From positions 1 to 64,000 of the forward strand of contig JAZAMN010000064.1 in the NCBI GenBank assembly GCA_036229005.1: 64,000 bases of DNA. Reading direction: 5' to 3'. Each line of letters begins with the position of its first letter. Within the stretch, counting starts at the first letter, position 1. Both the position numbers and the translations under genes were made by a program. Shown one piece after another: positions 32,549-61,321 of the stretch. The stretch is from Myxococcota bacterium. Its GTDB lineage: Bacteria > Myxococcota_A > UBA796 > CAJQPC01. The notes under the pieces are model-generated. The model was not told the DNA's origin, made no database searches, and saw nothing but the letters and a program-made list of their open reading frames with translations.

Positions 32549-33500
32549 TCAGTTAGGAACACCGTTTCTTGTCCGTCTCGGCGACCGGCGACCGGCGACC
32601 GGGGACCGGCATGACGTCGAGGCTCTCCTGGGTCCAGGTTGCATCTGGCGCGCCAAGAACCGTGGCCCGCACGCAGTGCCGGGCCCTCCCCGCGGCGTCC
32701 CCCAAGTCGGCTGCCACCAACACCCGAGCCCGGCACCACGCCATCGCCGGTCGCCAGTCGCCGGTAGCCGGTCGCCGCGTTGGGGGTCTCAGTAGTCAGG
32801 CAGGAGCGCCGGTTTCTGTCCGTCTCGCCGACCGGCGACCGGCGACCGGGGACCGGCATGACGCCGGGGCTTTCATGGGGCTGGGGTGCCGCTGGCGGGC
32901 GATGATTCGTGGGCCGGGCGCGGTGCCGGGCCTTCCCCGGGGCGTCCCCCAAGTCGGCTGCCTTCAACACTTGGACCGGCAAGACGTCGAGGCTCTCGTG
33001 GGGCCGGGGTGCCGCTGGCGGGCGATGATTCGTGGGCCGGGCGCGGTGCCGGGCCTTCCCCGGGGCGTCCCCCAAGTCGGCTGCCTTCAACACTTGGACC
33101 CGGCACAACGTCATCGCCGGTCGGCAGTCGCCGGTAGCCGCGTTTGGGGTCTCAGGTATCGGGTATCGGTAGTCAGCCAGGAACACCGGCTTCCGCGTGT
33201 CTCGGCGACCGGCGACCGGCGACCGGGGACCGGCATGACGTCGAGGCTTTCGTGGGTCCAGGTCGCCTCTGGCGCGCCAAGAATCGTGCCCCGCACGCTG
33301 TGCCGGGCCTGGGTGTCGTTGGCGCGCCGAGAACCGTGGCCCGCACGCAGTGCCGGGCCCTCCCCGCGGCGTCCCCCCAAGTCGGCTGCCACCAACACCT
33401 GAACCCGGAACCACGCCATCGCCGGTCGCCAGTCGCCGGTAGCCGGTCGCCGCCACCCCCCAACCCGATACCCGATACCCGATACCCGATACCTGACACC
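32522..33500. repeat. Array of three MITE/REPIN-like units bounded by inverted (GGTATCG)n tracts
   Basis: Each unit (~32579-32777, ~32826-33140, ~33203-33452) starts CG[GC]CGACCGGCGACCGGCGACCGGGGACCGGCATGACG and ends with its imperfect reverse complement (CGCCATCGCCGGTCGCCAGTCGCCGGTAGCCG...). Same family as 23769-24440. Confidence 0.9.
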
Positions 33501-40264: not shown

Positions 40265-42874
40265 TCAATAAGGAAGCTCAGCCAGCTGACTCAACACAGA
40301 CTCGAGCGTTGGGCGATCGCCCGGCTGGGGACGGGTGCAGGCCCGAAGCAGTTCGCGCCACTCCGGCAGCTGGAGTTGGTCCGGATCCGTCTGCCCGGTG
40401 AGCATGTATGTGAGGACCTTCCCAAAGGCATACACATCCATGGAGGGGTGTGGTTCTGCTTGTAGGACCTGCTCTTCGGGAGCGTAGCCAGGGGTCCAAC
40501 TGCCAGCGAGTGTCCTGCGTGACTGCAGGCGAACGAGGTTCTTTGCGAGGCCGAAGTCCCCCAGCTTCCAACGGTCTTGGACGCGGAGTACGTTCTCGGG
40601 CTTGAGGTCCCGATGTACGACGTCCAACTGGTGGAGGTTGCTAAGCGCTGCGCCAACCTCCAACCCGATTCGCTGGACTTCGGATGGGCCGAGAGTGCCA
40701 CCTTGAGAACGGACGTAGCTCTCCAGAGTACCGCCGTCAGCCAACTCTGTGACCAGGGCCATGGTGGTGTCGTCCTGGTGCACATCCAGGATCTTCAGGC
40801 TTCCCGCCACGTCAGCCCGTTCGAGCTTTGTGTAGATCTGAAGCTCTCGACGCAGCGCAACCGCGTTCAGGTCTTCCCCGACGGGAGCCTGCTTGATGAA
40901 GACCTGCTGACGGCTCTCGTTGTCGAAAGCTCGGTAGGCTCGGCTCATTCCGCCGCCAGCCAACTCCTCCAGGACGGCGTACCGGCCGTAGAGGACGAGC
41001 GTTGGTGTGTTGATGTCCCCGGGTGAGCGGGGGAGGGCAGCGCCGAAGTTCTTCCGAACACTGTCGCTGTCTCGTCCGTTGATCTCTTTTCCTGTTGCGT
41101 TCTCGATCAGGTCCAGCAGTCGTCTGGAGCGGTCGATTTTGAACTCTTCGTAGGTATCCGCCCGCATCAACTCAGGTGATGCCAAGTGGGTCCGACAGTA
41201 GGCATTCAGTTGCTTGGCATCGACGTCAGCGCGCTCGAGAAGCTCCAGGTAGTGGCTGGGGGCATGGCCTGAGATTCGTTGGTTCGTGCGGCGAGCCAGG
41301 GGGGTTCGGTTGTAGATGGCATTGTAGTCAGAGGATGGGATTCCCATACTCTTGCACCACTTCTGGGGAAACAGATGGTGGATGTCGATCGCGTCGCCTG
41401 CGCGGGAGATGTCGGAGACGGTATCCCCCCGGGCAAGGTCCCGACATCCTTGGGCAAGCAGAAGTGCTGCTATGCCTTTGTATGCCGCTGAGTTCCGGGT
41501 CCGGAGCGTAAGGAGGCGTGTAGGCTCGAAACTGCTGTCCCGTACGGTGGTCGGCTCTCGGTCATCGTCATCGACCCACTTGAGAAGGTCGGTAAGGTCG
41601 TGTGCGAATCGGGTCTCTGTACTGCTCCCATACAGCTCCCCAAACACACCACACCAGTACCAGCGCTCGAGCTTCTTGCGGGTTTTCTCGCTCTCTTCCT
41701 TTCCGCCCAGACGGGCAAGTACCGCTGCCAGAGGGACCAACTGAGTGGGATAGGGGACATTGCGCTCGTCGTAGATACACAGGCGCTCGAGCATCCTTGC
41801 TGCCCTGATGAACCCGGCTTCCAGACGGTCCGCTGTCTTCCGATACGACTCCAGCTTCAGGTTCAGCATGTCCTTTCGGGTGCAGCCCACCGCTGTGCCT
41901 TCGCCCGATTCCACTGCTTCAAATGAAGAGAGGAGCGTTACGGCCTGCATGAAATCCCTTGCACGAATCGTGCGCAGGACTGGATACCGGTGCATCCGCT
42001 GAGACCGGCCCTCTTGCTGGAGTCGTTCATTCTCGAAGACACCGTACCAGTCTGCGCGCAGTCTGAAGTCCTCGTCCTCGGCCGAGAACATCGCTGTGAG
42101 GAGCTCAAACACGGTGAGCTTCACGCCTCCAGTGTTCACGTTCTCGAACACCTGGCAGACCGCGGCATGGTCGGTGTTCTGAGCGAGTTCGATGACCGGT
42201 ACACGGTAGGTTCTAAGGTTCTGTAGAACGGTCTCTCTAAACTTGCTGAAGATTGAAAGGGTTTCCTGCGCCGTTCCATTTCCGAAGGCCCAGGTCATTT
42301 GTTCGGCGTGCCAAGTGGCTGCCCTCTCTGCGTCGAATGCAACCTCAAGTGGTATCGCCCAGTGCTTGAACTGCTGTTCGGGACTGCTGAGATCCTTCAC
42401 TACGTCACGGTTGAAGTTCGTCCGAATCACCCGGTCCGAGGGTGTGCTGAGGATTGCGTTTGTCCGTTCCGTGTCTTCGTTTAGACACGCCCTGATATCC
42501 AGGTAGAACCAGCGATCAATCGCCTTTCCCTTCTCGTCCTGTGTCTCCACGGGGCTGTTCTTCTTCAGTGCCTGGAACAGACTCGTGATTCTCTGCTGGC
42601 CATCAAGCAGCAGCAACTCTGGAGCGCGGTTGACCCTTGGTGCTCCCTCAATCGGCCGGGGATGAAATGCCGGTCTCCCGCCCGTCTTCAGCATCAAGAG
42701 TGCGCCGATTGGATAGGCAAGCGAGATGCTCGCCACCAGCGCTCGAATGCCCTCTTCCTTCCATACCCAGCCCCTCTGGAAGTCGGGCAGCTGGATCTCT
42801 CCACGATTCACCCGCTCAAGCAGGGTGGGAAGATCAGGTTGATTCAGGTCGAATGCGGAGATGCCTGCTGGCAT
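40265..42874 (-). CDS. GmrSD-type (DUF262 + DUF1524/HNH) restriction enzyme fused to a C-terminal Ser/Thr protein kinase
   Basis: FQRGWVW, LDGQQR, FENVNTGG (DUF262); DIHHLFP...N..PL...N (HNH); GGGMS, VFIK, HRDLKPEN, DFG, APE, DVYAFG (kinase). Visibly more A/T at third codon positions than flanking genes. Confidence 0.9.
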   Translation of the reverse strand: MPAGISAFDLNQPDLPTLLERVNRGEIQLPDFQRGWVWKEEGIRALVASISLAYPIGALLMLKTGGRPAFHPRPIEGAPRVNRAPELLLLDGQQRITSLFQALKKNSPVETQDEKGKAIDRWFYLDIRACLNEDTERTNAILSTPSDRVIRTNFNRDVVKDLSSPEQQFKHWAIPLEVAFDAERAATWHAEQMTWAFGNGTAQETLSIFSKFRETVLQNLRTYRVPVIELAQNTDHAAVCQVFENVNTGGVKLTVFELLTAMFSAEDEDFRLRADWYGVFENERLQQEGRSQRMHRYPVLRTIRARDFMQAVTLLSSFEAVESGEGTAVGCTRKDMLNLKLESYRKTADRLEAGFIRAARMLERLCIYDERNVPYPTQLVPLAAVLARLGGKEESEKTRKKLERWYWCGVFGELYGSSTETRFAHDLTDLLKWVDDDDREPTTVRDSSFEPTRLLTLRTRNSAAYKGIAALLLAQGCRDLARGDTVSDISRAGDAIDIHHLFPQKWCKSMGIPSSDYNAIYNRTPLARRTNQRISGHAPSHYLELLERADVDAKQLNAYCRTHLASPELMRADTYEEFKIDRSRRLLDLIENATGKEINGRDSDSVRKNFGAALPRSPGDINTPTLVLYGRYAVLEELAGGGMSRAYRAFDNESRQQVFIKQAPVGEDLNAVALRRELQIYTKLERADVAGSLKILDVHQDDTTMALVTELADGGTLESYVRSQGGTLGPSEVQRIGLEVGAALSNLHQLDVVHRDLKPENVLRVQDRWKLGDFGLAKNLVRLQSRRTLAGSWTPGYAPEEQVLQAEPHPSMDVYAFGKVLTYMLTGQTDPDQLQLPEWRELLRACTRPQPGDRPTLESVLSQLAELPY

Positions 42875-42932
42875 GACCCCTCCCAGGAGAGCTTTGGTAC
42901 GTTGGACGACTTCTTCATACCAGACTCCCGAG

Positions 42933-43742
42933 TCAGCGCGCCCGAACTAGCTCCTCCAACACCGCGCTCTCCCCCTCCGCATCCACACAATCGTCCAGCT
43001 CCCACACCACCAGCTCCCCCGATCGGCTGTAGTAGATCCCCACGCGCTCGATGGGCTCCGGGGGCCCACCGTTGAAGCCGTAGGCCCGCGCCAGGATGGC
43101 GTAGCCCACAAGCTGGCGCACATCCTTGAGCCTGAGCCGCAGGTCCTTGGTCGTCTTGATGTCGATCAGCAGGTCATCCAGCACCAGGTCGGCGTCCGCC
43201 CCGCCCACAATCAGCGAGCCTTCGCCAAAGCCTGGGTTCAGCAGGCAGCGCTCCGCGGGCACGAAGGCGTCCCAGGTGATCTCCGCGTAGAGCGCCTGCA
43301 ACTCCTCCAGCCACCCCGGGGGCGGTTCGCGACCAATCCACGTATCGGGCGCGACCGACGCGACGCCCCGCCCGATGGGCTCCAGCAGCGCGAGATCCCA
43401 GCACGCCCGAGCCTGCGCCCGAGTCAGCGCTTCGGCATCCTCCCAGGTCTGCAGGTCCTGCAGGGCCCGCTCCAGCAGCGCCTCACAAGCCCGCGCCTGC
43501 TCACGACTCCGCTGAGCGAGGGGGGCCCGCTCGGCAATCAGCGGCCCGCTCTCGCAGCGCTCCGGCCACAGGACCTCAAAGCCCGCCCGCATCGCGTAGT
43601 CGAACGCGGTCCCCATCAGCGCCGGACTGCCCCCGCAGGAAGGCACGCGCAGCGGCTCGCCGGGCCGACACTCGGGCTTCCGCATCCACTGCTTGAACAC
43701 AGCCCGGCCGCTGGGACTGTCTGCTCGGCTGGTGAGGCTCAT
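42933..43742 (-). CDS. PD-(D/E)XK (RecB-like) nuclease
   Basis: GTAFDY, GADADLVLDDLLIDIKTT, QLVGYA. Confidence 0.7.
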   Translation of the reverse strand: MSLTSRADSPSGRAVFKQWMRKPECRPGEPLRVPSCGGSPALMGTAFDYAMRAGFEVLWPERCESGPLIAERAPLAQRSREQARACEALLERALQDLQTWEDAEALTRAQARACWDLALLEPIGRGVASVAPDTWIGREPPPGWLEELQALYAEITWDAFVPAERCLLNPGFGEGSLIVGGADADLVLDDLLIDIKTTKDLRLRLKDVRQLVGYAILARAYGFNGGPPEPIERVGIYYSRSGELVVWELDDCVDAEGESAVLEELVRAR

Positions 43743-43868
43743 GGGCTCCCCGTCCTTGGGCGCAATGCGCGTTCACCCCTGCGCCCGCAATGCGCAGAAG
43801 AAGGCGTGCATGCTACCCTCTGCGGCCCCAAGCAGGCCATCCGCCAAAGACCCCGGGGGGAAGCACCC

Positions 43869-44243
43869 TTGCGCAGCCTACGAGACCAGATCCTCCACCT
43901 CCGGCAGCAGCCTCTGCTTCACATAGACGCAATCCGGGCCCGCATCGACCAACACCTCCAAACCGCCCAAACCGCCGCCCAGACCTCCCCCTTCGTCGAC
44001 CTCCCCACGGCCGCCACGATCCACGCCGCCTGCACCGAGCTCCTCAACGACTGGGACCAGCTCACCGACGATGCGCGCCTCTGGGCCCAGGTCGCCTGCC
44101 TCTACTTCGCCGACCCCGATGACTCCGCCGGCGAGCCCGACTTCGACTCCATCGTGGGCTTCGACGACGACCTCGACGCCCTCAACCACTGCCTCGAGCG
44201 CATCGGCCGCCCGCCGGTCCCGCACCCCATGGACGCCCCATGA
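43869..44243 (+). CDS. Small DUF1232/YkvA-like protein
   Basis: YFADPDD...PDFDSIVGFDDD motif; stop overlaps the SNF2 ATG. Start uncertain (TTG 43869 or GTG 43806). Confidence 0.6.
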   Translation: MRSLRDQILHLRQQPLLHIDAIRARIDQHLQTAQTAAQTSPFVDLPTAATIHAACTELLNDWDQLTDDARLWAQVACLYFADPDDSAGEPDFDSIVGFDDDLDALNHCLERIGRPPVPHPMDAP

Positions 44244-47107
44244 GCACCCTGAACACCTACCCCCCAGGCCAGCGCGTCGAGATCCGGGACGAGGAGTGGC
44301 TGGTCCGCCGCACACTCCCGGCCCAACAAGGCACGGCTGTCCAGGTCATCGGCCTCTCTGAGCTGGTGCGCGGCCACGAGGCCACCTTCCTGGACACCCT
44401 GGACCCCGTCACCGTCCTGCGGCCCGAAGACACCGAGCTCGTCCCGGACCCCAGCCCCGGCCACCGCCGCAGCCGCCTCTACCTGGAGGCCCTGCTCCGG
44501 CGCAGCCCGCCCACCGACCCCCGGCTGGTCATCGGCCACCGCGCCGCCATCCGCGAGAGCCCCTACCAGTGGGCCCCCGCCGCCCAGGCCCTCCGCCAGC
44601 CCCGCCCCCGCATCCTCATGGCCGACGGCGTGGGCCTCGGAAAGACCATCGAGGTCGGCGTCCTGCTCTCCGAGCTCATCCAGCGGGGCAGGGGACAGCG
44701 CATCCTGGTCGTCGCCCTCAAGTCCATCCTGGCCCAGTTCCAGGAGGAGCTCTGGGCCCGCTTCACCATCCCCCTGGTCCGCCTGGACTCCGTGGGCATC
44801 CAGCGCGTCCAGGGCCGCATCCCGGCCAACCAGAACCCCTTCCATTACTTCGACCGCGTCATCGTCTCCATCGACACCCTCAAGAAGGATGCGCGCTACC
44901 GCGGCTACCTGGAGAACGCCCACTGGGACGCCGTCGTCATCGACGAGTGCCAGAACGTCGCCGAGCGCGGCACCAAGGCCTCCCAGCGCGCCCGCCTGGC
45001 CCAGCTCCTCGCCCGCACCGCCGACGCCCTCATCCTGACCTCCGCCACCCCCCACGACGGCCGCCCCGAGTCCTTCGCCAGCCTCATGCACCTGCTGGAG
45101 CCCACGGCCATCGCCGACCCCAGCCAGTACACCAAGGACGAGGTCCAGGGCCTCTTCATCCGCCGCTTCCAGAAGGACGTCCGCGCCGGCGCCTCCGGCA
45201 GCTTCCACGAGCGCCAGCTCGGCACCCTGGCCCCCCGCTGCACCGACCCCGAAGAGGCCGCCCTGCTCGCCGTCCGCGGCGCCCGCTTCCACACCATCGG
45301 CCGCTCCCGCAAGACCGACGCCCTCTTCCGCGTCCTGCTCCTCAAGGCCCTGCTCTCCAGCCCCGCCGCCTGCCTCCAGACCCTCGCCGAGCGCCGCCGC
45401 AAGCTGGAGAAGCGCGAGCAGACCGACGACGTGGTCCACGACCTGCAGGTCATCGACGACCTCACACAGACCGTCTCCGCCATCTCCACCGCCCAGCAGT
45501 CCAAGCTCCAGGCCCTCTTCCAGTTCCTGGACGACCTGGGCTACCGCAAGGGCACCCCCGGCAAGCGCGTCGTCATCTTCTCCGAGCGCCGCGCCACCCT
45601 GGACATGCTGCAAGAGCAGCTCGCCGCCCGCTACGGCCTCAAGACCACCGCCGCCCGCAAGGGCGAGCTCCACAAGTGGCGCAAGGGCCAGATCGCCACC
45701 TTCCACGGCTCCCTCCCCGACCAGGAGCAGTACGCCTTGGTCCAGGACTTCTCCAACGAAAAGGGCAGCCTCCGCCTGCTCCTGGGCTCCGACGCCGCCG
45801 CCGAAGGCCTGAACCTCCACCACACCTGCCACCACCTGGTCCACTTCGACATCCCCTGGTCGCTGATCACCCTGGAGCAGCGCAACGGCCGCATCGACCG
45901 CTTCGGCCAGAGCGAGCCCCCCATCATCCGCTACCTGCTCTCCGACCCCGGCCACCCCGATCTGCAGGGCGACATGCGCATCCTCAAGCGCCTGATCGAC
46001 AAGGAGGGCGAAGCCGCCGCCAACCTGGGCGACGTGGCCTGGCTCATGAAGCTCCACGACGCCGTCCAGGAAGAGCGCCGCATCGCTCAGGCCATCGAGT
46101 CCGGCGAGTCCCCCGAGTCCGTGCTCCCCGACGCCGACGACCAGCCCCAGGACGACGACGACTGGCTCCAGGCCCTGCTCGAGGAAGAGGAGGAGGAGGA
46201 GCCGGAGACCACCCGCCCATTCCGCCTCCTACCCTCTGACCTGGAGTATGCCCGCCTGGGCTTTGGAGAGCTGCTGGCCGACGGCGAGGACAGGCTGGTC
46301 CAGTGGGAGCCCGAGCTCTCCGGCTTCGTCCTGCAGATGCCCCCGGACCTGGCCACCCGCTACCGCTACCTGCCCCCCCAGCTCCAGCGCGGAAAGGACG
46401 GCCGCCTCAAGCTCAGCACCGACCGCAAGCGCGTCATGGACGCCTACGCCCAGGCCCGCAACACCGAAGACGGCTGGCCCGAGTGGGAGCTCTTCTGGGA
46501 GCAGCACCCCGTGGCCGAGTGGCTCAACGACCGCGTCCTGGCCACCTTCCGCCGCCACGAGGCTCCCGTGCTCCCGGTGCACGCCCACCTGCAGCCTGGC
46601 CAGGCCGCCTACATCTTCCAGGGCGTGCTCGCCAACCAGCGCTCCGTCCCCGTTCGGGTGGAGTGGGGGGCCGTCGTCCTGCGCGGCCCCGGCGACCTGC
46701 AGCTCCAGCCCTTCGAGAGCCTCGCTGCCGCCGTCGGCCTGGACCAGCCTCTGCCCAACACCGGCCAGTCCCTGGACACCGCCCCCCTCAGCGCGAACCT
46801 CCCCGCCGCCGTCCGCGCCTTTGGCGACCACATGCGCCGCGTCTCCCTGGAGTACCAGCGGGACGCCGTCGCCCAGCTCCGCCCCGCCGTCCGCAAGCTC
46901 CGCGGCTGGCACGGCCGCAGCCTGGAGCAGCTCCAGGCTCAGCAGCAGCGCCTCATCGGCGCCCAGAGCGTCAAAGAGCGCCAGCTCCAGCAGCAGCGCC
47001 AGGAGCTCGACCGCGTCTACAAGAGCCGCCACGACTGGATCCAGAACTCCGTCAAGCCCGGCCCCCCCACCACGCGACTGGCCGCTGTGCTGGTCCGCCC
47101 CGCCTGA
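44240..47107 (+). CDS. SNF2-family helicase (DrmD-like)
   Basis: ADGVGLGKT, IDECQN, SATPHDG, AAEGLNL, FDIPWS...EQRNGRIDRFGQ. Confidence 0.93.
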   Translation: MSTLNTYPPGQRVEIRDEEWLVRRTLPAQQGTAVQVIGLSELVRGHEATFLDTLDPVTVLRPEDTELVPDPSPGHRRSRLYLEALLRRSPPTDPRLVIGHRAAIRESPYQWAPAAQALRQPRPRILMADGVGLGKTIEVGVLLSELIQRGRGQRILVVALKSILAQFQEELWARFTIPLVRLDSVGIQRVQGRIPANQNPFHYFDRVIVSIDTLKKDARYRGYLENAHWDAVVIDECQNVAERGTKASQRARLAQLLARTADALILTSATPHDGRPESFASLMHLLEPTAIADPSQYTKDEVQGLFIRRFQKDVRAGASGSFHERQLGTLAPRCTDPEEAALLAVRGARFHTIGRSRKTDALFRVLLLKALLSSPAACLQTLAERRRKLEKREQTDDVVHDLQVIDDLTQTVSAISTAQQSKLQALFQFLDDLGYRKGTPGKRVVIFSERRATLDMLQEQLAARYGLKTTAARKGELHKWRKGQIATFHGSLPDQEQYALVQDFSNEKGSLRLLLGSDAAAEGLNLHHTCHHLVHFDIPWSLITLEQRNGRIDRFGQSEPPIIRYLLSDPGHPDLQGDMRILKRLIDKEGEAAANLGDVAWLMKLHDAVQEERRIAQAIESGESPESVLPDADDQPQDDDDWLQALLEEEEEEEPETTRPFRLLPSDLEYARLGFGELLADGEDRLVQWEPELSGFVLQMPPDLATRYRYLPPQLQRGKDGRLKLSTDRKRVMDAYAQARNTEDGWPEWELFWEQHPVAEWLNDRVLATFRRHEAPVLPVHAHLQPGQAAYIFQGVLANQRSVPVRVEWGAVVLRGPGDLQLQPFESLAAAVGLDQPLPNTGQSLDTAPLSANLPAAVRAFGDHMRRVSLEYQRDAVAQLRPAVRKLRGWHGRSLEQLQAQQQRLIGAQSVKERQLQQQRQELDRVYKSRHDWIQNSVKPGPPTTRLAAVLVRPA

Positions 47108-47116
47108 GAGCGCCCC

Positions 47117-50100
47117 ATGGCCCTGGACCTCACCGGCATCGAGAACCGCGGGGAGTTCTACTCCCACCACTACCTGGACGCCCTGCTCGAGAGCGACCTC
47201 AAGCCTCTGCTCCAGCAGTGGGCCGACGCCGAGAGCGCCACCCCGCCCGTGCGCGCCCCCTACAAGCGCCTGGGGGGGCTGGCCGGCCGCTACTTCGACG
47301 CCCGCGCCCAGGCCGCTGAGCTTGGCCCCCAGGCCCTCAGCGAGCGCTGGCAGCTCGCCCACGCCTTCCACGCCCACCTGCTGGACGCCCTGGGCTACAC
47401 CCGCAGCCCCCAGACCGTCGAGCTCCCCGGCGGCACCCAGCTCCCCTTGCTGCACGAAGAGCGCCGCGGCGGCCAGGCCGCCCTGTGGGTGATCGAAGCC
47501 CCCGCCCCCCAGCCCGACCAGGACCCCCTGGACGCCCAGCCCCTGCGCGACCAGTACCCCCAGCTGGGCCCCGACACCAAGACCCCCGAGCTCACCTGGC
47601 GCGAGCTCCTGGACCGCGAGCTCTTCCGCCACGACGACGCCCCCACCTGGGTGCTCTTCCTGGGCGGCTCCGAGATCGTGCTGACCCACCGCCACAAGTG
47701 GGGCCGCGGCCAGGCCCTGGCCTTTGACCTGGACGCCCTCTACGCCCGCCGCCAGTCCGCCGCCTTCCGCGCCATGGCCGCCCTGCTCCACCAGCAGGCC
47801 CTGGTCCCCAGCGACGGCGTCTCCCTGCACGAGCACCTGGACGAGTCCAGCCACAAGCACGCCTTCTCCGTCTCCGGCGACCTGCGACGCGGCGCCGAGC
47901 AGGCCATCGAGATCCTGGGCAATGAAACCGCCTGGTACCTGCGCACCGTGCGCCGCCGCGGCGTCTTCGGCAGCAGCGAGTCCGCCGAGTCCGTCGACCC
48001 CACCCAGCTCACCCGCGAGCTGCTGGTCTATCTGTATCGCCTCATCTTCCTGTTCTACGTCGAGTCCCGCAGCGACGCCCTGGGCGTCGTCCCCATGCGC
48101 TCCGAGTCCTACCGCCGCGGCTACAGCCTGGAGTCCCTGCGCGATCTGGAGCAGGTCCCCCTGAGCACCCCCCAGGCCCAGGAAGGCTACTTCCTGCACC
48201 ACAGCCTCCAGCAGCTCTTCAAGCTGGTCAACCAGGGCCACGGCGTCGCCGCCCAGCAGTCCCTGAACGCGGCGGGCATGGACGCCGCCGGCTTCCGCAT
48301 CCGCGGCCTGCACAGCCGCCTCTTTGACGACACCCAGCTCTCCATCCTGGCCCGGGTCCGCTTCCGCAACGCCGCCCTCCAGCGCGTCATCCAGCTCCTC
48401 TCCTTGTCAGAGGAGGGCAAGCACCGCCAGCGCGGCCGCATCTCCTACGCCAGCCTGGGCATCAACCAGCTCGGCGCCGTCTACGAGGGCCTGCTCTCCT
48501 ACACCGGCTTCTTCGCCAAGGTCGATCTGATCGAGGTCGCCAACCCAGAGAAGAAGGGCAAGCCCGACGCTCGCAGCTTCTTCGTGCCCGAGTCCCACAT
48601 CGACCGCTACGACGACGCGGAGGTCGTGCGCGATCCCAAGACCGGCGCCCGCAAGCGCTACCCTCGGGGCAGCTATCTGTATCGCCTGGCCGGCCGCGAC
48701 CGCGAGAAGTCCGCCAGCTTCTACACCCCCGAGGTCCTCACCCGCGCCCTGGTCCGCTACACCCTGCAGGAGCGCATCGGCAAGGACGGCGCCCCCGACG
48801 CACTGCCCGCCGACGCGCTGCTCACCCTGAGCATCTGCGAGCCCGCCATGGGCAGCGGCGCCTTCTTGAACGAGGTCATCGAGCAGCTCGCCCACGCCTA
48901 CCTGGACCGCAAGTCCGCCGAGCTGGGCCAGCAGATCCCGGCCGCCGACTACCCCCGCGAGCTCCAGCGGGTCAAGGCCCACATGGCCGCCACCCAGTGC
49001 TACGGCGTGGACCAGAACCCCCTCGCCACCGAGCTGGGCAAGGTCTCCCTGTGGCTGAACACCCTGCGCCCGGGCGCCCCCGCACCCTTCTTCGACCCGC
49101 GCATCGTCACCGGCAACTCCCTGGTGGGCGCCCGCCTGGCCGTCTACACCCCCAAGCACCTGCACAAGGCCGGCAAGAACAAGCCCCCCAACTGGACCGA
49201 GGCCGCCCCCGAGCCCCTGCAGGGCCCCCGCGCTCCCCAGGCCATCTACCACTTCCTGCTGCCCACCACCGGCATGGCCCCCTTCGACGGCGACAAGGTC
49301 GTCAAGGCCCTGCTCCCCGAGCGCGTGGCCGAGCTCAAGGCCTGGCACAAGACCCTCAAGGCCGCCTGGAGCCCCGCACACCGGGCCCGCCTCCAGAAGC
49401 TGTCGGAGCAGGTGGACAGTCTGTGGGAGGAGGTAGCGGCGCATCGGCGCAAGACACTGGCCGCCTGCACCCCCCCAAGCCCCGTCTGGCCGGAACCTGA
49501 CAACACCGACCCCGCAGACGAGGACACCCTGGCCGCGACCTGGCGCCAGGCCCAGGACGACGACTCCGCCGGCAAGCGCCTGCGGGCCGTCATGGACTAC
49601 TGGTGCGCCCTGTGGTTCTGGCCCCTGCAGCGCGCCGCCGAGCTGCCCAGCCGAGAGCAGTGGCTGGCCGATCTGGAGCTCTTGTTGGCGGGCCGCCGCC
49701 GGGATGCGGGCAGCGACAGCCCCACCGCCCGGCGCCTGGACCTGGCCGCCGAGCTCGCACAGACCCACCGCTTTGTGCACTGGCCCCTGGAGTTCCCGGA
49801 GGTGTTGGCGAATGGTGGCTTTGACGTGGTGGTGGGAAATCCGCCGTGGATCAAGCTGCAGTGGAACGAGGGCGGCATCCTGTCGGATCTGGACCCCCGC
49901 CTGGTCATCCGGCGCATGTCCGCCAAGAAGATGGCCGATCAGCGCGCACAGACTCTGGAGCAGCCGGAGGCCCTTGCCGCGTATCTGGGGGAGTTTGAGG
50001 GGCTGGAGGGGCAGAAGGCCTTTTTGAATGGGGTGGGGAACTATCCACTGTTGAAGGGGGTGCAGACGAATCTGTACAAGGCCTTCTTGAGCCTGGGCTG

Positions 50101-51691
50101 GCGTGTGCTGGACCGCGCTGGCATCGGCGGCATGTTCCACCAGGCAGGCATCTTTGATGACCCCAAGGGCGGGGCCCTGCGCAGCCACGCTTTCCCCCGG
50201 ATGCGGCTGGTTGGTCTCGCCAAGAACCAGCTCAGTCTCTTTGAGGGTGTCACGCACCAGCGGCCCTACTGCTTCACAGTCTGGGGAGGCCGAGAGGACG
50301 TCTCGGTAGACTTCCGCTGTGTGTCCAACCTCTTCCACCCCCGCACCCTCGACGCCTCGCTGGAACACGACGGCCTCGGCGAGGTCCCCGGAATCAAAGA
50401 CGACGAGGGCAACTGGGACCTGCGCGGCCACTGCTCCCGCATCGTCCACGTGGACCAGGCCACCCTGGGCCTCTTCGCCAAGCTCTACGACCCCCCTGGC
50501 ACGCCGGCCCTGCAGGCCCGGCTGCCGGTGGTCCACAGCCAGGAGATCCTGAGCGTGCTGCGCAAGCTGGCCCAGGCGCCGCGCACCCTGGCGGATCTGG
50601 AGGGGCAGTTCTTCGCCACGGTGTGCTTCGATGAGACCGGAGCGCAGCGCAACGGGACCATCAAGCGGGACGTCCGCTTCCCTGCCGACCCCAGCGAGTG
50701 GGTGGTCTCCGGCCCCCACTTCTACGTGGGCACCCCCTTCAACAAGACCCCCAACGAAGGCTGCCGCCACAACCAGGACTACAGCGTGGTGGACTGGATG
50801 GACATGCCGGCGGACTACCTGCCCCGCACGAACTACGTGCCGGCCTGTGATGCGGAGACCTACCGGGAGCGCACGCCGCACTGGCAGGGGCGGCCGGTGA
50901 CGGAGTCGTTTAGGCACGTCCATCGCCGAATGGCTCCGCCTACTGGAGAGCGCACGCTGGCGCTGGCGATTTTGCCCCCCGGGGCTGCCCACACTCACAC
51001 TGTGATCTCGTTTACGTATTCGTCACCGAAGGAGTTGGTCGCCAGCGCGGGGTTCTTCTCCTCCATTCCGTATGACTTCTTCGCCAAGTCCACGGGGAAG
51101 AGCGACATCTATGAGCAGACGATTGCTGCATTCGCTAGGCCAGAGGCACCCACGCAGTTGATTTCGCGCGCCCTCCGCCTGAACTGCCTCACCGCCCACT
51201 ACGCCGACCTCTGGTCGGAGCTCTACCAGCCTGACTTCGCCGGCGACACCCACACAAAGACCGACCCCCGGCTGCCCGACTGGTCCCACTTGGTGGACCA
51301 CTGGACCTGGGACACCCCCCTCCGCTCTCCCTTCTCCCGCCGGCAGGCGCTGGTGGAGCTAGACGCGCTGGCCGCCATCGCCCTGGGCCTCACAGCGGAA
51401 GAGCTCTGCCTGATCTACCGCGTACAGTTCCCGGTGCTGCGCGGCTACGAGAGCGACACCTGGTACGACCAGCGCGGGCGCATCGTGTTCACCAACAACC
51501 GCGGCCTGAACGGCGTGGGGCTCTCCCGAAAGGAGTGGAACGAGATCCGCGACGCCCAGCCCGGCGACCCCCTGCCGGAGTGGGCCCGCGACAACCTGGG
51601 TTGCTACCAGCCGCCCTTTGACCGCTGCGACCGGGAGGCCGACATGACCCAGGCCTACAACGCCTTTGTGGCCCGGGGGGTGACCCAGTGA
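47117..51691 (+). CDS. Large N6-adenine DNA methyltransferase (Eco57I/type IIG-like, DrmMI-like)
   Basis: LGAVYEGLL, REKSASFYTP, CEPAMGSGAFL (motif I), YGVDQNP, GFDVVVGNPPW (motif IV), NLYKAF, C-terminal TRD region. Confidence 0.93.
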   Translation: MALDLTGIENRGEFYSHHYLDALLESDLKPLLQQWADAESATPPVRAPYKRLGGLAGRYFDARAQAAELGPQALSERWQLAHAFHAHLLDALGYTRSPQTVELPGGTQLPLLHEERRGGQAALWVIEAPAPQPDQDPLDAQPLRDQYPQLGPDTKTPELTWRELLDRELFRHDDAPTWVLFLGGSEIVLTHRHKWGRGQALAFDLDALYARRQSAAFRAMAALLHQQALVPSDGVSLHEHLDESSHKHAFSVSGDLRRGAEQAIEILGNETAWYLRTVRRRGVFGSSESAESVDPTQLTRELLVYLYRLIFLFYVESRSDALGVVPMRSESYRRGYSLESLRDLEQVPLSTPQAQEGYFLHHSLQQLFKLVNQGHGVAAQQSLNAAGMDAAGFRIRGLHSRLFDDTQLSILARVRFRNAALQRVIQLLSLSEEGKHRQRGRISYASLGINQLGAVYEGLLSYTGFFAKVDLIEVANPEKKGKPDARSFFVPESHIDRYDDAEVVRDPKTGARKRYPRGSYLYRLAGRDREKSASFYTPEVLTRALVRYTLQERIGKDGAPDALPADALLTLSICEPAMGSGAFLNEVIEQLAHAYLDRKSAELGQQIPAADYPRELQRVKAHMAATQCYGVDQNPLATELGKVSLWLNTLRPGAPAPFFDPRIVTGNSLVGARLAVYTPKHLHKAGKNKPPNWTEAAPEPLQGPRAPQAIYHFLLPTTGMAPFDGDKVVKALLPERVAELKAWHKTLKAAWSPAHRARLQKLSEQVDSLWEEVAAHRRKTLAACTPPSPVWPEPDNTDPADEDTLAATWRQAQDDDSAGKRLRAVMDYWCALWFWPLQRAAELPSREQWLADLELLLAGRRRDAGSDSPTARRLDLAAELAQTHRFVHWPLEFPEVLANGGFDVVVGNPPWIKLQWNEGGILSDLDPRLVIRRMSAKKMADQRAQTLEQPEALAAYLGEFEGLEGQKAFLNGVGNYPLLKGVQTNLYKAFLSLGWRVLDRAGIGGMFHQAGIFDDPKGGALRSHAFPRMRLVGLAKNQLSLFEGVTHQRPYCFTVWGGREDVSVDFRCVSNLFHPRTLDASLEHDGLGEVPGIKDDEGNWDLRGHCSRIVHVDQATLGLFAKLYDPPGTPALQARLPVVHSQEILSVLRKLAQAPRTLADLEGQFFATVCFDETGAQRNGTIKRDVRFPADPSEWVVSGPHFYVGTPFNKTPNEGCRHNQDYSVVDWMDMPADYLPRTNYVPACDAETYRERTPHWQGRPVTESFRHVHRRMAPPTGERTLALAILPPGAAHTHTVISFTYSSPKELVASAGFFSSIPYDFFAKSTGKSDIYEQTIAAFARPEAPTQLISRALRLNCLTAHYADLWSELYQPDFAGDTHTKTDPRLPDWSHLVDHWTWDTPLRSPFSRRQALVELDALAAIALGLTAEELCLIYRVQFPVLRGYESDTWYDQRGRIVFTNNRGLNGVGLSRKEWNEIRDAQPGDPLPEWARDNLGCYQPPFDRCDREADMTQAYNAFVARGVTQ

Positions 51692-54600
51692 TCCCCAGCG
51701 TCGTCGCCCGCCAGCTCCAGGACAACCTGCTGGACTACGTGGGGGCCACCCTGGCCCTCTCCGACGCCGCGGTGGACGACGCCCTGCAGGCGCACCTGGC
51801 CGGGAAAAACGGCCTCTTCGCCGGGCCCTACCTGCGCCTGGGCCTGCCCTTTGCCAGCGCGCCCGCGGACGCGCCTCCGGTGCTGGACGTCGGGCCGCCC
51901 TTTGTGCCCTACGCCCACCAGCGGCAGGCCTTCGAGCAGCTCTCCAGCGACCAGGCCCAGCCGCGCAACACGCTGATCACCACGGGCACCGGCTCGGGCA
52001 AGACCGAGTGCTTTTTGTACCCCATCCTGGACCACTGCCAGCGGCACCGGGACACGCCGGGGGTGCAGGCCATCCTGATCTACCCCATGAACGCCCTGGC
52101 CACCGACCAGGCCCGGCGCTTCGCCCAGGCCATCCACGAAGATCCGCGCCTGCACGGCCTGCGCGTGGGTCTGTATGTGGGCGGCAAGGGGGGCACCCGC
52201 AAGATGGGCCCCGAGCAGGTGATCGAAGACAAGGACGTGCTGCGCAAGCACCCCCCACAGATCCTGCTCACCAACTACAAGATGCTGGACTTCATGCTGC
52301 TGCGCCCCGACGAGCGCAAGCTGTGGTCCCACAACGGCCCCCAGACCCTGCGCTACCTGGTGATCGACGAGCTGCACACCTTCGACGGCGCCCAGGGCTC
52401 GGACGTGGCCTGCCTGATCCGGCGCCTCAAGGCCCGCCTGGGCACGCCCCCGGGGCACCTGATCTGCGCGGGGACCTCGGCGACCATCGGCGGCAGCGCG
52501 GACGGCGACTCAGTGGCCCGGCTCTCGGAGTTCGCCGGCCTGGTCTTTGACGCGGACTTCCACCCCAGCGCCGTGGTGGGGGAGCAGCGCGTGCCCCGCC
52601 GGGAGTTTCTGCGACAGGCCACCGGCCCCACGCCGCTGCCTGACCGCGCCCAGCTCGCCGCCCTGCACCCCGGACCGGACGCGGAGGCCTGGCTGAGCCA
52701 GCAGCAGCAGCTCTGGCTGGGCCAGGTCTTCGACGACCCGGTGGCCCTGGGCGACGCCCTGCGCGCGCACCCCCTGCTGGACCACCTGCTGGCGCTCTGC
52801 GCCGCGCACCCTCGGCCCCTGCCCAAGCTGGCCCAGCGCCTGCACGAGCGCATGCCGGAGCTGCGCGCCTACCGCGACGACGCCCTGGGCGCGCTGCTCG
52901 ACTCCTTCTTGGGCTTGCTGGCCCACGCCCGCCGCAAGCAGGGCTCCAAGACCCTGCCGCTGGTCACCCTGCAGATGCAGCTCTGGAGCCGGGAGCTCAC
53001 CCGCCTGCTGCGCGTGCTCCCCAACCGCCAGCGCCCCGAGCAGCAGCCCGAGATCGGTGAGTCCCCGGGCATCGACGGGCTGGTCCCGCGCTTTGTGTGG
53101 TGGACCGAGCAGCCCAACCCCGACCGCTCCAAGCCCCTGGCCGGTGTGCAGGCCCACTGCCGCGAGTGCGGCGCCGTGGGCTTGGCCTGCGCGGAGACGG
53201 AAGCCGACCAGCAGAAGGGCCAGCTCACCTGGGACCCCGGCGCGGTGGGCCAGCACTGGATGGAGAGCAGCCGGGCGGCGCGCTTTCTGTGGCTGCGCCC
53301 CCTGGACCACGAGCAGCGGGTGGGGGAGCTGATCCACTGGCTGGATCCCAGCGGCGGCGTGGTCATGGGCGTGGAGCCCGTGGACGACCAGGGGCAGGGG
53401 ACCGGCGTGCCCGTCATCGTGGAGAAGCGCCTGGGCAACGGGGGGCGCTTTCTGGCCCAGTGCCCCTGCTGCGAGAGCGAAGACGCCCTGCGCATCCTGG
53501 GCGCCCGCGCCGCCAGCCTGAGCAGCGTGGTCATCTCCCAGCTCTTCCAGTCGGACTACCACCACGACCCCAAGCTGCTGGCCTTCACCGACTCGGTGCA
53601 GGACGCCAGCCACCGGGCCGGGTTCTTTGGCGCCCGCAGCTTCCGCATTCACCTGCGCGTGGCCATGCAGGCCGTCCTGCGCGCCGCCCAGGACCGGGGG
53701 GAGACCCTGACCCTGGAGAGCGCCCCCAAGGCCTTCCTGGAGCACTGGAAGGCCGAGCAGGGCGCGGCCTGGACCATGGCCGCCTTCTTCCCGCCCGACC
53801 TGCGGGAACTGCCCGAGTTCACGACCTACGTGGAGAAGAAGGGCAAGGGCCGCCACCAGCGCCTGTGGAACATCCTGCGCGCCCGCATGGGCTGGGAGTT
53901 CACCCGGGAGTTCGGCCTGATGGCCAGCCTGGGGCGCAGCCTGGAGCGCACGGGGGCCAGCACCCTGGCCATCGATCCCCAGCGCCTGGAGCAGGCGCAG
54001 CAGCGCTTTGAGCAGTGGCTGGCCCAGGACGGGCTGGCCGGCCCCAAGGCCCTGCCCCGCGCCTTCGTGCTGGGCCTGCTCCACCGCATGCGACACCAGG
54101 GCGGCATCCACCACCCCTACCTGGAGAGCTACCGGCGCAGCCTGGGCAACGCCTTCCTGCTCAACCGCCGCAAGAACCCCCACATCAGCTACTTCGGCCG
54201 CCGCACGCGGCGCCCCCGCTATGTGAGCTCCTACGCCAAGGGAAAACGTTTTGCCTCGCCCTTCTCCCGCCGCTCGGCGGCGGGCTGGTACGGCGACTGG
54301 ATGAACCGCTGCCTGGACTGGGGCAGCCCCGGTCCCGACGACGTGGCCCGCGTCTACCGCCAGCTCCTGGCCCACCTGGTGGAGGCCGGCATCCTGGAGC
54401 AGCGGGACGCCGAGGGCGGCGCCGAGACCTGGGGCCTGCGCCCCGACGCCCTGCACCTGAGCCTGGAGCTGGGCCGCCTGCGGGACGGGCACCGCCACCA
54501 GCACCTGCACGCCGCGGAGACCCAGGTCATCGCCGGCGGCCCGGTCTGGCGCTTCCGGGCCCCGGAGCGCTTTGTGTCTCAGAAGCCCCAGCCCGGCTTC

Positions 54601-57600
54601 TACGCCCAGGTCTACGCCCGTGAGCAGAGCAGCCGCGTGCTCTCCGCCGAGCACACCGGCCTGCTGGAGCGCGAGCCCCGCACCCTGCTCGAGCAGCGCT
54701 TCCTGGCCTCGCCCGACCCCCAGGACCCTCTGGCGCCCAACCTGCTGGTGTGTACGCCCACGCTGGAGATGGGCGTGGACATCGGTGACCTCTCCGCCAC
54801 CCTGCTGTGCTCCGTGCCCCCCACGCCGGCCAACTACCTGCAGAGGGTGGGCCGCGCAGGTCGAAAGACGGGCAACGCCCTCATCTTCACCCTGGCGACC
54901 TTCAAGAACCACGACCTGTACTTCTTCGCCGAGCCCGAGCGCATGCTGGACGGTCAGGTCGCCACCCCCGGTGTGTTCCTGGGGGCGACCGCGATGCTCC
55001 AGCGCCAGCTCTCGGCCTGGTGCATGGACCGCTGGGCCCAAGACGACCCCGGCGCCGAAGCCATCCCCGCCAAGGCCAGCCTGGTGCTCAGCGAGCAGGG
55101 CGCGCAGGTCTTTCCGGGGCGCTTTCTGGACTACTTCAAGGAGCACCGGGAGCGCCTGCTGGCGGGCTTCCTGGAGCGCTTCTCCCAGACCGGCCTGCGC
55201 CCCCAGACCCAAGCGCTGCTGACGGCCTGGGTGCAGGATCAGGCCCACGGGCTGGAGCAGGCGATCCCCGGGGCGTTTGCGGAGCTGCAGGCGCAGATCA
55301 AGCAGTACGCCTACGAGCGCCAGAAGGCCAACGAGCGCATCAAGCAGATCGAGGCCGACCCCACCCTGGTGGGGGACGCCGCGCTGGAGATCAAGGAGCT
55401 CAACCGCCACCGGCTGGTGCTCTCCCAGCTCATCGGCGAGCTGCGCCGCACCTACCCCCTCAACGTGCTCGCCAACCGCTCCCTGCTTCCCAACTACGCT
55501 TTCCCAGAGGCTGGCGTGGAGCTGCACTCGCTGCTGGCCGAGAACCGTCAGGGGCCCGGCGACCAGACCGAGCGGCACTACGACAAGCGGAGCTACCAGC
55601 GGCCGGCCGCCCGCGCCCTGCGGGAGCTGGCGCCCTTCAACACCTTCTACGCCGACGGCCACAAGGTCCGCGTCACCGAGCTGGAGCTGGGCCCCAAGGC
55701 CAAGCTGGTGCGCTACCACCGCATCTGCCCCACCTGCCACCACCACAGCATCCAGCCGGTCAACCCCCAGGAGCCCTGCAAAGACCCGGGCTGCCCCAGG
55801 TGCGGAGACCCGCAGTGGGGGGACAAGGGCCAGGTGCGCGCGCTGCTCTCCCTGAGCACCGTGCGCTCGGTGGCCGACCGCGTGCTCAGCACCACGGTGG
55901 ACGACAGCGAAGAGCGGGAGCGCCAGTCCTACCACCTGATGGGTCTGTATCAGGTGCTGGAGACCGAAGGGCAGGCCCTGGTCCACCCGGAGCTGGGCTT
56001 TGGCTTCGAGTACGTGCGGGAGCTGCGCTACACCGAGCTCAACACCGGGCCGCGCACCGCCGTGGACGGGGGGCCCAAGCTGCGCTTGGCCGGCGAGGAG
56101 GTCTCGGCCCAGGGCTTCATGGTCTGCGCCGACTGCGGGGGCGTGCAGGAGCCCAGCAGCGGTGGGCGGGACCCCAAGCTGCGACACAACTTCCGCTGCC
56201 CGCAGCGGAACAAGGACAACAAGGCGCTGCTGCCCCTGTACCTGTCGCGGGAGCTGCGCTCGGAGGCCGTTCGCTTCCTGATGCCCTTCTCCCAGGTGCA
56301 GGTGGAGCAGAAGCAGCGCAGCTTCCAGGCCGCCCTGAACTTTGCCCTGCGCCGCCGCTTCCAGGGGCGCCCCATCCACCTGGGGGTGGGCACCATGTCC
56401 GAGCCCGTGCCGGGCAAGAAGGACCAGCGAAAGCACTTCTTGGTGCTGCTGGACACCGTGCCTGGGGGCACCGGCTACCTGCGCGAGTATCAGGACCGGG
56501 AGCAGGTCTTTGGGCTGCTCCAGCTCGCGCTGGACGGCCTGCGGGGCTGCGGCTGCCAGCAGCAGGGGCGGGACGGTTGCTACCTGTGCCTGTTCGCGCA
56601 CCAGGCCCAGCGGCACCTGCCCCTGCTCTCCAGCAAGGTCGCCCAGGACATGCTGCAGGAGATCCTGGACAGCAAGCACGAGTTCGACGGCGCCAGCGGG
56701 GGCCTGAGCGGCACCAACGTGTCCTCGGTCTTGGAGTCCGAGCTCGAAGAGCGCTTCGTGAGCTGGCTCCAGGCCCAGAGCGGTGTGGAGCTCACCCCCC
56801 AGGGCCAGGACTTCCGCCTCCAAATCGGGGAGTGTGTGTGGGTGATGAAGCCCCAGGTGGACCTGCACGCCGAGGCCGGTCAGCCCATGCGCGCGGACTT
56901 TGTGCTCTATGGGGCCCAGGGGCCCGCGCTGAATCAGGTGGTCGTGATCGAGTGCGACGGCTTCGAGTACCACGCCATGCCCGGCAAGCCCGACTGCAGG
57001 CTGGAGGGGGACGTGGAGAAGCGACAGTCCCTGGTCCAACGCCCGGGCTGGCAGGTGTTCTCCCTGACCTGGCAGGACCTCGTCGGCGAGGACACCCCGG
57101 CCTTTGCTCCGGAGGCGTTCATCGGGCGGCCCACCAAGACCCGGGAGAAGATGTTGGACCGGGTCGCGCCCAAGCTCCCGCACCTGAGCGTGGAGACCTT
57201 GCGCAAGCTCCCGGGGCTGGATGCAGGGGGGCTCCTGCTGGCGTGGCTGCGACAGCCCGTCCCGGACTGGTCGGGTGCGGTGAGCGGTCTGTGTCACGCT
57301 GCGCTGATCGGGGCGCTCAAGGGGCAGGGGAGCCTGGACGCCTTCTCGCTGGGCAAGCTGCAGGACCACCTGGAGGGGCAGCGGACACTGTCGCCGCTGC
57401 CGCCCCTGGGACACAACCGGAAGCCCAAGAACACCGAGCCGCTGGGGGTGTCCAGCGCGGATGCCTACTGTGCGGGGCTGGTCTGGCTCCCGGAGATGGC
57501 GCAGGCGGTGCAGCTCGGGGTCAGCAACTTGCGGCTGATCCTGCGGCTGGAGGACAGCCACCACGCCCGCCAACAGGCTGACTACCGGGAGAGCTGGCGG

Positions 57601-60695: not shown

Positions 60696-61321
60696 TGTGG
60701 GGACCGCTGCAGGCGCTGTCTCGGCGTCGGTCTGTGTTTCATTCCGAGGCGGACTTCCAGTTCGAGCTGGCCACCGAGCTGCGGGAGCTAGGGTGGACCG
60801 AGATCCGCCTGGAGCGCCCCGCGCCCGGGCAGTCGGGTCGCATCTACGTGGACATCGTTGCGCGGGACCCGGATGGCGTGCGCTGGGCCATCGAGCTCAA
60901 GTACTGGACCCGCAAGCTGGAGCTCACCCTGGGCGACGACGTATTCGAGCTGCGGGACCAGTCCGCTCATGACCTGAACCGGTACGCGTTCTGCAAGGAC
61001 CTGGCGCGGGTTCAGCGCTTGGTGGCAGAGGGTGTCGCGCAGCGGGGGCGGGTCATCGCGCTGACCAACGACTCGGCCTACTGGAAGCCCGGGCGCTCGG
61101 AGCAGTGCTTGGATGCGGCGTTCCGCATTCACGAGGGCCGCGAGCTGTCCGGTGTGCTGGACTGGACCCGTGAGAGCGGGACCACCAAGGGAAAGGGGCC
61201 CTTGGCGCTGTCGAGCCCGGTCGCGCTGGCTTGGGAGGACTTCTGTGAGCTGGATGGGAAGCGGGGGCGCTTCCGCTTGTTGGACGTGCGCATTCCAGAG
61301 AGTGCGCACCCGCCGGGGTGA
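60695..61321 (+). CDS. PD-(D/E)XK nuclease-family protein
   Basis: FHSEADFQ, YVDIV...AIELKY, KDLARV. TGATG coupling to the UvrD gene. Confidence 0.75.
   Translation: MWGPLQALSRRRSVFHSEADFQFELATELRELGWTEIRLERPAPGQSGRIYVDIVARDPDGVRWAIELKYWTRKLELTLGDDVFELRDQSAHDLNRYAFCKDLARVQRLVAEGVAQRGRVIALTNDSAYWKPGRSEQCLDAAFRIHEGRELSGVLDWTRESGTTKGKGPLALSSPVALAWEDFCELDGKRGRFRLLDVRIPESAHPPG

Follow-up and report, generated by a model that had tools for sequence, protein, structure and literature searches.

We analysed a 64,000-nucleotide stretch of a Myxococcota bacterium genome (assembly GCA_036229005.1, contig JAZAMN010000064.1, positions 1 to 64,000; hereafter the window), focusing on a minus-strand gene in which a GmrSD-type restriction enzyme is fused to a Hanks-type serine/threonine (Ser/Thr) kinase (Table 1). 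The gene is one stop-free open reading frame (ORF) of 869 codons, and Pfam recognises both ends of its product, GmrSD_N at residues 18–263 and Pkinase at residues 632–829 (E 7.4e-32), each passing its cut-off. Motifs of the GmrSD part lie at nt 42781 (FQR), 42604 (DGQQR), 42148 (FxxxN) and 41380 (HHLFP), and those of the kinase at 40903 (VFIK), 40615 (HRDLKPEN) and 40558 (DFG). Together with the structure model and fold matches given below, these assignments bear out the three-part architecture that a preliminary description of this DNA had read into the single ORF. The same description had called the gene visibly less GC-rich than its neighbours, and so it is: the GmrSD part has a GC content of 0.58 and the kinase part one of 0.62, compared to 0.70 for the genome, and GC content at third codon positions (GC3) is 0.68 and 0.72, respectively, with 0.86–0.96 in ten neighbouring genes. 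This supports a foreign origin and, since both halves are low in GC3, they look as if they had arrived together. No meaningful repeats, promoter or terminator exceeding chance were found around the gene.

Table 1 Features of the fusion gene and its neighbourhood (window coordinates)
Feature	Coordinates	Strand	Evidence and remarks
GmrSD(DUF262-HNH)-kinase fusion gene	40265..42874	-	869 aa; 16 full-length homologs at 42–66% identity, 41 clusters overall
Shine-Dalgarno-like GGGAGG	42879..42884	-	4 nt upstream of the fusion-gene ATG; homolog starts in register
DUF262 / ParB-Srx-type NTPase domain, residues 18–263	42086..42823	-	Pfam GmrSD_N, E 1.4e-28
Helical middle domain, residues ~264–460, conserved WYWCGVFGELY	41495..42085	-	Structure model; aligned inside the BrxU and SspE matches
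HNH (His-Me) nuclease domain, residues ~461–577	41144..41494	-	Fold matches BrxU, SspE-CTD and Cas9 HNH domains
Low-confidence linker, residues ~611–625	41000..41044	-	Begins where unfused homologs stop (after FGGxL); pLDDT <50 at 619–624
Compact Hanks-type RD Ser/Thr kinase, residues 626–869, short C-lobe	40268..40999	-	Pfam Pkinase; PknB fold match
PD-(D/E)XK-like gene, upstream, co-directional	42933..43742	-	58 nt from the fusion gene; weak PADLOC match, 3e-8
Four-gene operon, ARMADA type II order (context only)	44240..60695	+	Divergent from the PD-(D/E)XK gene

What does the first part of the protein do? Its DUF262 domain scores 100.8 bits against Pfam PF03235 (cut-off 33.2) and carries Q33-R34, D91-G-Q-Q-R95 and F243-x3-N247, matching the QR, DGQQR and FxxxN motifs defined for the GmrSD family (PMC4619093). 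The HNH domain holds D497, H499, H500, N522 and N531, with the D/E-H-N-N catalytic set of the family present and conserved as D497-H500-N522-N531. A model of residues 1–610, built on a 65-row alignment, reached a pLDDT of 93 and a pTM of 0.85. Its best fold match is BrxU (Z 19.9, 501 aligned residues, 17% identity, with an rmsd of 19.8 that reflects domain movement), further matches are the SspE C-terminal domain (SspE-CTD; Z 10.3, 291 aligned, rmsd 5.1) and DndI (Z 10.2, 424 aligned, rmsd 6.9), Cas9 HNH domains match residues 461–580, and Foldseek puts the same structures first. Pfam PF07510 (GmrSD_C/DUF1524) gave no match at E 0.001 in the fusion protein and is listed for none of its best 120 homologs, so the GmrSD part looks like a divergent subfamily. 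Of the HNH/DUF1524-like motif noted earlier, the HNH half is thus upheld by residues and fold, and the Pfam DUF1524 assignment is not. By motifs and fold, this part is a BrxU-like GmrSD-family protein with predicted DNA cleavage activity; its likely task is to recognise and cut DNA that is foreign and probably modified. Triggers in the family range over modified cytosines, deazaguanines and phosphorothioates (PMC12137116, among other sources), and the closest folds, BrxU, SspE and DndI, differ in trigger and share 13–17% identity, which leaves a glucosylated or otherwise modified cytosine as substrate without support.

The kinase carries K661, the αC glutamate E677, H754-R-D756, K758, N761, D773-F-G, the activation-loop T788, E801 of subdomain VIII, D813 of subdomain IX, a TGxTDxD motif and R854 of subdomain XI; it is catalytically complete and predicted to be active, and it superimposes on PknB with a Z of 25.6 and an rmsd of 2.4 over 228 residues. 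The complete kinase of the preliminary description holds for these catalytic residues, but not in three other respects. Its glycine loop is degenerate, reading A-G-G-G-M-S in place of the canonical GxGxxG, with only G641, G642 and M643 conserved; the invariant glutamate of subdomain VIII is found one residue past the 'APE', at E801; and the C-lobe is ~22 residues below the usual length, the model having helices only at 810–826, 837–846 and 857–866 and no αG helix of at least four residues.

Is the fusion real? The best 120 matches to the window protein comprise 16 full-length fusion homologs at 97–100% coverage and 104 unfused proteins of ~600 aa. The wider search that the preliminary description had called for brought the total to 41 full-length fusion clusters including that of the window, with two more from a search with the kinase alone and 22 from a search with an HNH-dead query; source names include Polyangiales, Polyangiaceae, Deltaproteobacteria and Myxococcota, which suggests Myxococcota hosts. 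The C-termini of 25 unfused homologs stop just past FGGxL, where the linker begins, hence the kinase seems to have been appended to a complete protein. A Logan contig spans 40977–41236, and thereby the linker, with zero differences, albeit such contigs are fragmentary and may share the source of the assembly; no RNA run with the gene was listed. An assembly chimera or neutral read-through could be argued from the 74 contigs of the genome and from this possible common source of the covering runs, yet the same junction recurs in 41 clusters from several public sources, low GC3 is common to both halves and the catalytic residues are invariant; the homologs refute this explanation, whose chance we regard as negligible. 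The fusion is real, not chimeric. It is present in three of 182 genomes of the host's class, and a metagenome scan yielded 80 GmrSD loci, all of them unfused. Among plasmids, the unfused GmrSD part matches 15 and the kinase none at E 1e-25. A single origin of the GmrSD-kinase fusions was considered and rejected, given two forced label changes on the tree and a second GmrSD subfamily that carries the kinase; all trees here were made with fast methods and are unrooted, so gains and losses of the fusion are indistinguishable.

The preliminary description had tied the kinase to GmrSD; the link stands, but the kinase is a portable module and not particular to this partner. The kinase alone was searched against 1.84 billion representatives; the 150 listed matches, rescored with a hidden Markov model (HMM) built from the fusions, separated cleanly: 73 score at least 197, 76 at most 138, and one gave no match. 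Members of the high-scoring subfamily bear the signature TGxTDxD, and their kinase ends within ten residues of the C-terminus in 69/73 representatives versus 1/76 of the others. The αF aspartate and the subdomain-XI arginine are a median of 41 residues apart (54 measurable members) versus 63 (52 non-members), as judged by a rough pattern match. K661, E677, H754, R755, K758, N761, D773, T788, E801 and D813 are invariant in all 69 full-length members, and D756 is present in 68.

At least 55 aa precede the kinase in 58 of the 73 representatives, and partners were identified from 57 subfamily proteins that were scanned, plus follow-ups. In BrxL, the kinase follows position 479 of the 675-position Lon-tailed model and replaces the Lon-like tail. 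Other partners are full-length ProA, a type III restriction endonuclease (Res), SspH (after a C5-methylase, SspF and SspG), MkoB (after MkoA), a DndH/MAD8-like ATPase, DUF1998 (YprA) helicases, UvrD, HNH and DUF4268 proteins, a DGQHR-like domain near dpdAB (a match below cut-off) and a small PbeD-like protein after PbeA and PbeC, which has no library match (a similar one matches TIGR04062 below cut-off). The second GmrSD subfamily barely aligns with the window protein outside the kinase, and BREX-6 PglZ is the single partner to carry the kinase at its N-terminus. The 57 partner segments fall into 31 groups, many of them without any library match, and on a kinase tree of 89 rows the partner label changes 37 times, with a minimum of 18, when unclassified partners are pooled as one label. 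The kinase has moved between partners repeatedly and forms a portable tail on about a dozen kinds of unrelated defence protein. Two loci deserve mention in their own right: in an SspFGH-like (L009:1614-13310) and a PbeA/PbeC-like (L010:9076-15692) system, ordinary DNA methyltransferases replace the phosphorothioation genes, and each system ends in a kinase of the subfamily.

A profile search of proteins of 122–758 aa gave a similar picture. The best 120 of its 143 matches comprise 85 BrxL fusions, 16 proteins with an unnamed ~80-aa domain, 14 with fewer than 30 aa before the kinase, and five others. Because the DUF4268, PbeD-like and ~80-aa-domain partners hold no recognised catalytic domain, the kinase is their only evident output. 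The ~80-aa domain reads WSRPxKIxRVLxALGM...PGIEAKIRLRR (P0310, P0312, P0314, P0315, P0317, P0318 and others) and has no Pfam match in four relatives scanned. The BrxL-kinase fusions, ~736–745 aa long, form a large family with Planctomycetota names (P0330–P0418; L280, L281, L284, L287), one of which (L287) sits in an SspD/SspC-like (BREX type 4-like) operon. Genome surveys, which scored only five candidates per genome and therefore yield lower bounds, recovered the subfamily in at least 4/401 genomes of the host's own phylum, at least 3/401 of the class of a Polyangium genome and at least 8/401 of the class of a Planctomycetaceae genome. Together with the 182-genome class survey, they gave 16 distinct loci, namely four GmrSD, six BrxL (in one, the kinase is split off as a separate frame; another is a fragment that retains a short BrxL tail) and one each of SspH, DndH/MAD8-like, MkoB, DUF1998 helicase, DGQHR-like and PbeD-like. 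Each of the 16 belongs to a defence-type protein or a defence operon, none being a housekeeping or membrane-receptor kinase; the defence role proposed earlier is supported. Other searches returned little: five Myxococcota, Planctomycetota and Acidobacteriota genomes held no subfamily member, a related-locus search with the kinase alone had no matches, and the ESM Atlas offered generic kinase clusters only. Among the matches listed in a search with the kinase alignment, all were generic kinases (up to 36% identity in genomes and 38% in viral contigs), which makes this search uninformative on the range of the subfamily or its presence in phages. Descent from the host's own kinases was rejected as well, as among 62 kinase ORFs of the genome matched by the HMM, the window kinase scores 373 and the next best 117.

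How do nuclease and kinase fare over time? The kinase catalytic set with T788 and the DGQQR motif are intact in all 41 fusions, and by a strict rule seven of them have a broken HNH set. One of these has N531 changed to histidine, and a histidine at the last HNH position is compatible with the HNH motif, leaving six: P0009, P0014, P0017 and P0288 have lost both histidines and N531, and P0286 and P0287 carry only N531-to-W. As the intact member P0285 nests among the broken ones, there were at least two HNH losses, or one loss and a reversion. For comparison, H499, H500, N522 and N531 are kept in 104/104 top unfused matches, a control biased by its intact query, and the HNH set is intact in 79/79 covered unfused metagenome loci (80 examined, 62 clusters at 90%), which had been found by patterns outside the HNH domain and confirmed with an HNH-dead protein. 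The DUF262 motifs are intact in the HNH-dead members, suggesting that the NTPase still serves something.

What, then, might the kinase be for? The reading we put first, and to which we grant about an even chance, is that the GmrSD part senses or cuts foreign DNA and that the kinase is a second, abortive output arresting the infected cell. It starts from two observations: the domains and their catalytic residues are present and conserved, and the kinase is a portable tail that was repeatedly moved and was kept where the HNH site decayed. BrxU cleaves only after its DUF262 domain has bound and hydrolysed NTP and the protein has passed through a dimer–monomer–dimer cycle (PMC8565348), and DUF262 has been put forward as the likely sensor regulating the nuclease (PMC12137116). 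By extension from this biochemistry, NTP binding and hydrolysis would drive such a cycle in the fusion protein and license cleavage. Engagement of DNA, or a cycle stalled by a phage inhibitor, might then rearrange the assembly and bring the tethered kinases together for trans-phosphorylation of T788, the invariant threonine of their activation loop. RD kinases with an invariant activation-loop threonine are usually activated by trans-autophosphorylation. By analogy to Stk2, the active kinase would phosphorylate essential host proteins, thereby backing up cleavage, or replacing it if the HNH domain is dead.

Several points weigh against this proposal. Resting BrxU is already dimeric and hydrolyses NTP without stimulation by DNA (PMC8565348), so the switch cannot lie in dimerisation as such. 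The full-length model has a pTM of 0.61 compared to 0.85 without the kinase, meaning that the orientation of the kinase is not fixed, and docking of substrates could be restricted by the short C-lobe. A scan of the ten neighbouring ORFs revealed neither an antidote nor a phosphatase. As to the decay of the nuclease, the six of 41 fusions are not a frequency, because one fusion search used an HNH-dead query and this ascertainment inflates the count; the HNH-broken lineages are related to one another, and in two of the six the last asparagine alone is lost; and a fusion that had lost its kinase entirely would have been counted as unfused. Finally, the kinase may work alone, given the 14 of 120 matches with fewer than 30 aa before it, many of which are truncated or on short contigs.

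The preliminary description had offered abortive back-up and gating of the nuclease side by side. In the latter case, the kinase would be a regulator that phosphorylates its own GmrSD part or partner complex, either keeping the nuclease off self DNA or switching it on. A brake could indeed be needed, since the host genome encodes a C5-methyltransferase and BrxU cuts 5mC DNA (PMC8565348); many partners are DNA-modification systems that need to avoid autoimmunity; and Ser/Thr at alignment columns 419, 524 and 552 is commoner in fused (0.74) than in unfused (0.23–0.30) proteins. The signal at these columns is weak, however, not being corrected for relatedness, and the window protein has an aspartate at 552. 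Besides, the partners are without a common fold or sequence, as their 31 groups attest, unfused relatives of the same subfamily are abundant, and the kinase is retained where the nuclease site has decayed. A regulatory kinase therefore appears unlikely to us, and abortive back-up is favoured over gating because the same kinase occurs on unrelated partners and is kept despite nuclease-site decay.

Alternatively, the kinase might be a self-contained sensor-effector resembling Stk2, which detects a phage protein and for which fusion would provide only co-expression and co-transfer with defence genes. The frequent partner swapping, the one N-terminal PglZ fusion, the flexible linker and the existence of some kinase-only ORFs speak for such autonomy, and the conserved non-catalytic residues R676, Y681, K778 and C846 could bind a ligand. 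Then again, the kinase is nearly always fused, with 106 of the listed 120 matches of the profile search, in addition to the 58/73 representatives above, having at least 30 aa before it, and the DUF262 motifs stay intact in HNH-dead members; we deem this explanation quite unlikely.

With abortive back-up as the preferred reading, do the surroundings of the gene name a partner? The PD-(D/E)XK-like gene was considered as a dedicated partner and rejected, as it adjoins a different gene in a genome of the same genus (G004). There, the slot between an SLOG gene and the PD-(D/E)XK gene is filled by a 1129-aa hybrid sensor histidine kinase, so that the fusion is an accessory gene in a variable slot. 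The divergent operon is intact and encodes an SNF2 helicase, a PglX-like methyltransferase, a YprA/DUF1998 helicase and UvrD, and by gene order it corresponds to ARMADA type II (PMC12458937). It was likewise rejected as an obligate partner, for it lies on the opposite strand and other fusions sit elsewhere: between pglX and pglY of a BREX type 2 operon (L270), directly upstream of DISARM drmA/B/C (L008) and, in the closest fusion homolog (L007), 10 nt before a 1024-aa protein (L007:6143-9217) that has weak Hsp70-like and AAA matches and no PADLOC match. This placement resembles the embedding in other systems described for BrxU and other GmrSD-like genes (10.1101/2024.01.29.577857). Unfused GmrSD proteins of the window's subfamily were also seen between the methyltransferase and the DUF1998 helicase of the same four-gene operon in a metagenome locus (L237) and next to a CBASS pair of SMODS cyclase and SAVED effector (L011:1593-7477). 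Around the window's operon, a 145-aa ORF (43806-44243, +) without library match overlaps the SNF2 gene start, and a 208-aa ORF (60695-61321, +) directly 3' of the operon looks PD-(D/E)XK nuclease-like by eye and has no Pfam or PADLOC match. Elsewhere in the window, ~1 kb of intergenic sequence (32500-33500) contains several imperfect repeated segments, seen as repeated peptides in shadow ORFs.

By membership tests, the window protein is not BrxU, PglW, MAD6 or Stk2, and it is probably not SspE. BrxU (PADLOC HEC-05; PDB 7P9K/7P9M), a type IV enzyme of the GmrSD family, shares with it the DUF262 QR/DGQQR/FxxxN motifs, the helical linker and the HNH domain, and is embedded in BREX much as relatives of the window's subfamily are embedded in other systems. 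Unlike BrxU, the fusion has DIHHLFP in place of DHIYP, an extra C-terminal kinase and no Pfam GmrSD_C match; the HEC-05 profile scores 64.9 bits over residues 17–302 only, and RLFDS and DHIYP are absent from the translation. The phosphorothioate-sensing SspE and DndI (PDB 7DRI, 6JIV and 9JFL; Z 10.3, 7.3 and 10.2) have the same two-domain fold, but match less well than BrxU and lack a kinase; TIGR03183 dndC had no match in the host genome (94% complete; sspD and other ssp genes were not searched for). PglW and kinase-extended DndF likewise link a kinase covalently to restriction components, although theirs are tandem pseudo- and active kinases in the N-terminal half, whereas the window kinase is single, compact and C-terminal. 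With 39 bits, the window kinase falls far short of the NCBIfam PglW cut-off of 990; conversely, the subfamily HMM gives a PglW a score of 37, where members reach at least 197. MAD6 (MADS), PD-T4-6 and MkoA (Mokosh) are the best generic PADLOC kinase matches (136, 115 and 86 bits), over the kinase domain only; NCBIfam MAD6 reaches 95 bits with a cut-off of 460, and the subfamily kinase on MkoB stands beside a separate MkoA kinase.

Stk2, an abortive-infection Ser/Thr kinase of Staphylococcus and a Hanks kinase in anti-phage defence, is our model for the proposed output, even if it is stand-alone, activated by a phage protein and only partially matched by its HMM (63 bits, residues 674–830). It kills the cell by phosphorylating host proteins (PMC6532042). 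Could the window kinase instead act on the phage? Tethered to invading DNA, it would phosphorylate anti-restriction or replication proteins without killing the cell. Most partners are DNA-binding motors or nucleases able to deliver a kinase to phage DNA, and the neighbouring ARMADA-type system is described as non-abortive (PMC12458937). Against this stands the host-directed action of Stk2, the characterised defence kinase, and we see only a slim chance of phage targets.

The idea of a kinase as a suicidal back-up has precedents. It was proposed for PglW kinases in a BREX survey, which also reports the BrxL tail replaced by an HKD nuclease (PMC12839542), and for kinases on DndF in a Dnd survey (PMC10853773); kinases fused to AbiJ N-terminal domains were suggested to be toxins (PMC3710099). 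In contrast to this precedented hypothesis, the GmrSD-kinase architecture and the kinase module appear undescribed: we found no description of either in a literature search largely outside subscription papers. The extra domains given in a GmrSD survey are DUF4268, DUF4357 and PF01035 (PMC4619093), and three further texts (PMC11090510, 10.64898/2026.04.06.716658 and 10.1101/2023.03.30.534895) contributed nothing on a GmrSD-kinase fusion. This supports the apparent novelty claimed by the preliminary description, which had known of no characterised fusion of this kind; the findings it had named as fatal, a chimeric junction, absence from other genomes and an already named system, were each looked for, and none was encountered.

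Tentatively, and at somewhat less than an even chance, we suggest that Myxococcota and Planctomycetota carry a so far undescribed portable immune kinase, a minimal Hanks kinase that can be attached to nearly any DNA-defence protein. It would convert the assembly state of its partner into a phosphorylation-driven abortive response and, in GmrSD proteins, would repeatedly have reduced a nuclease to a sensor that signals through the kinase. So far, enzymes of the GmrSD family are known to act as nucleases directly. A GmrSD protein wired to a kinase, and occurring naturally in nuclease-dead forms, would set sensing apart from cutting, so that the way in which DUF262-HNH proteins recognise modified DNA could be read out cleanly. 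That a single small kinase occurs on about a dozen unrelated defence proteins suggests a general principle of coupling, and such a portable kinase would open a way to study poorly understood partners, BrxL and DndH among them, in large-genome, kinase-rich bacteria whose immunity is little studied.

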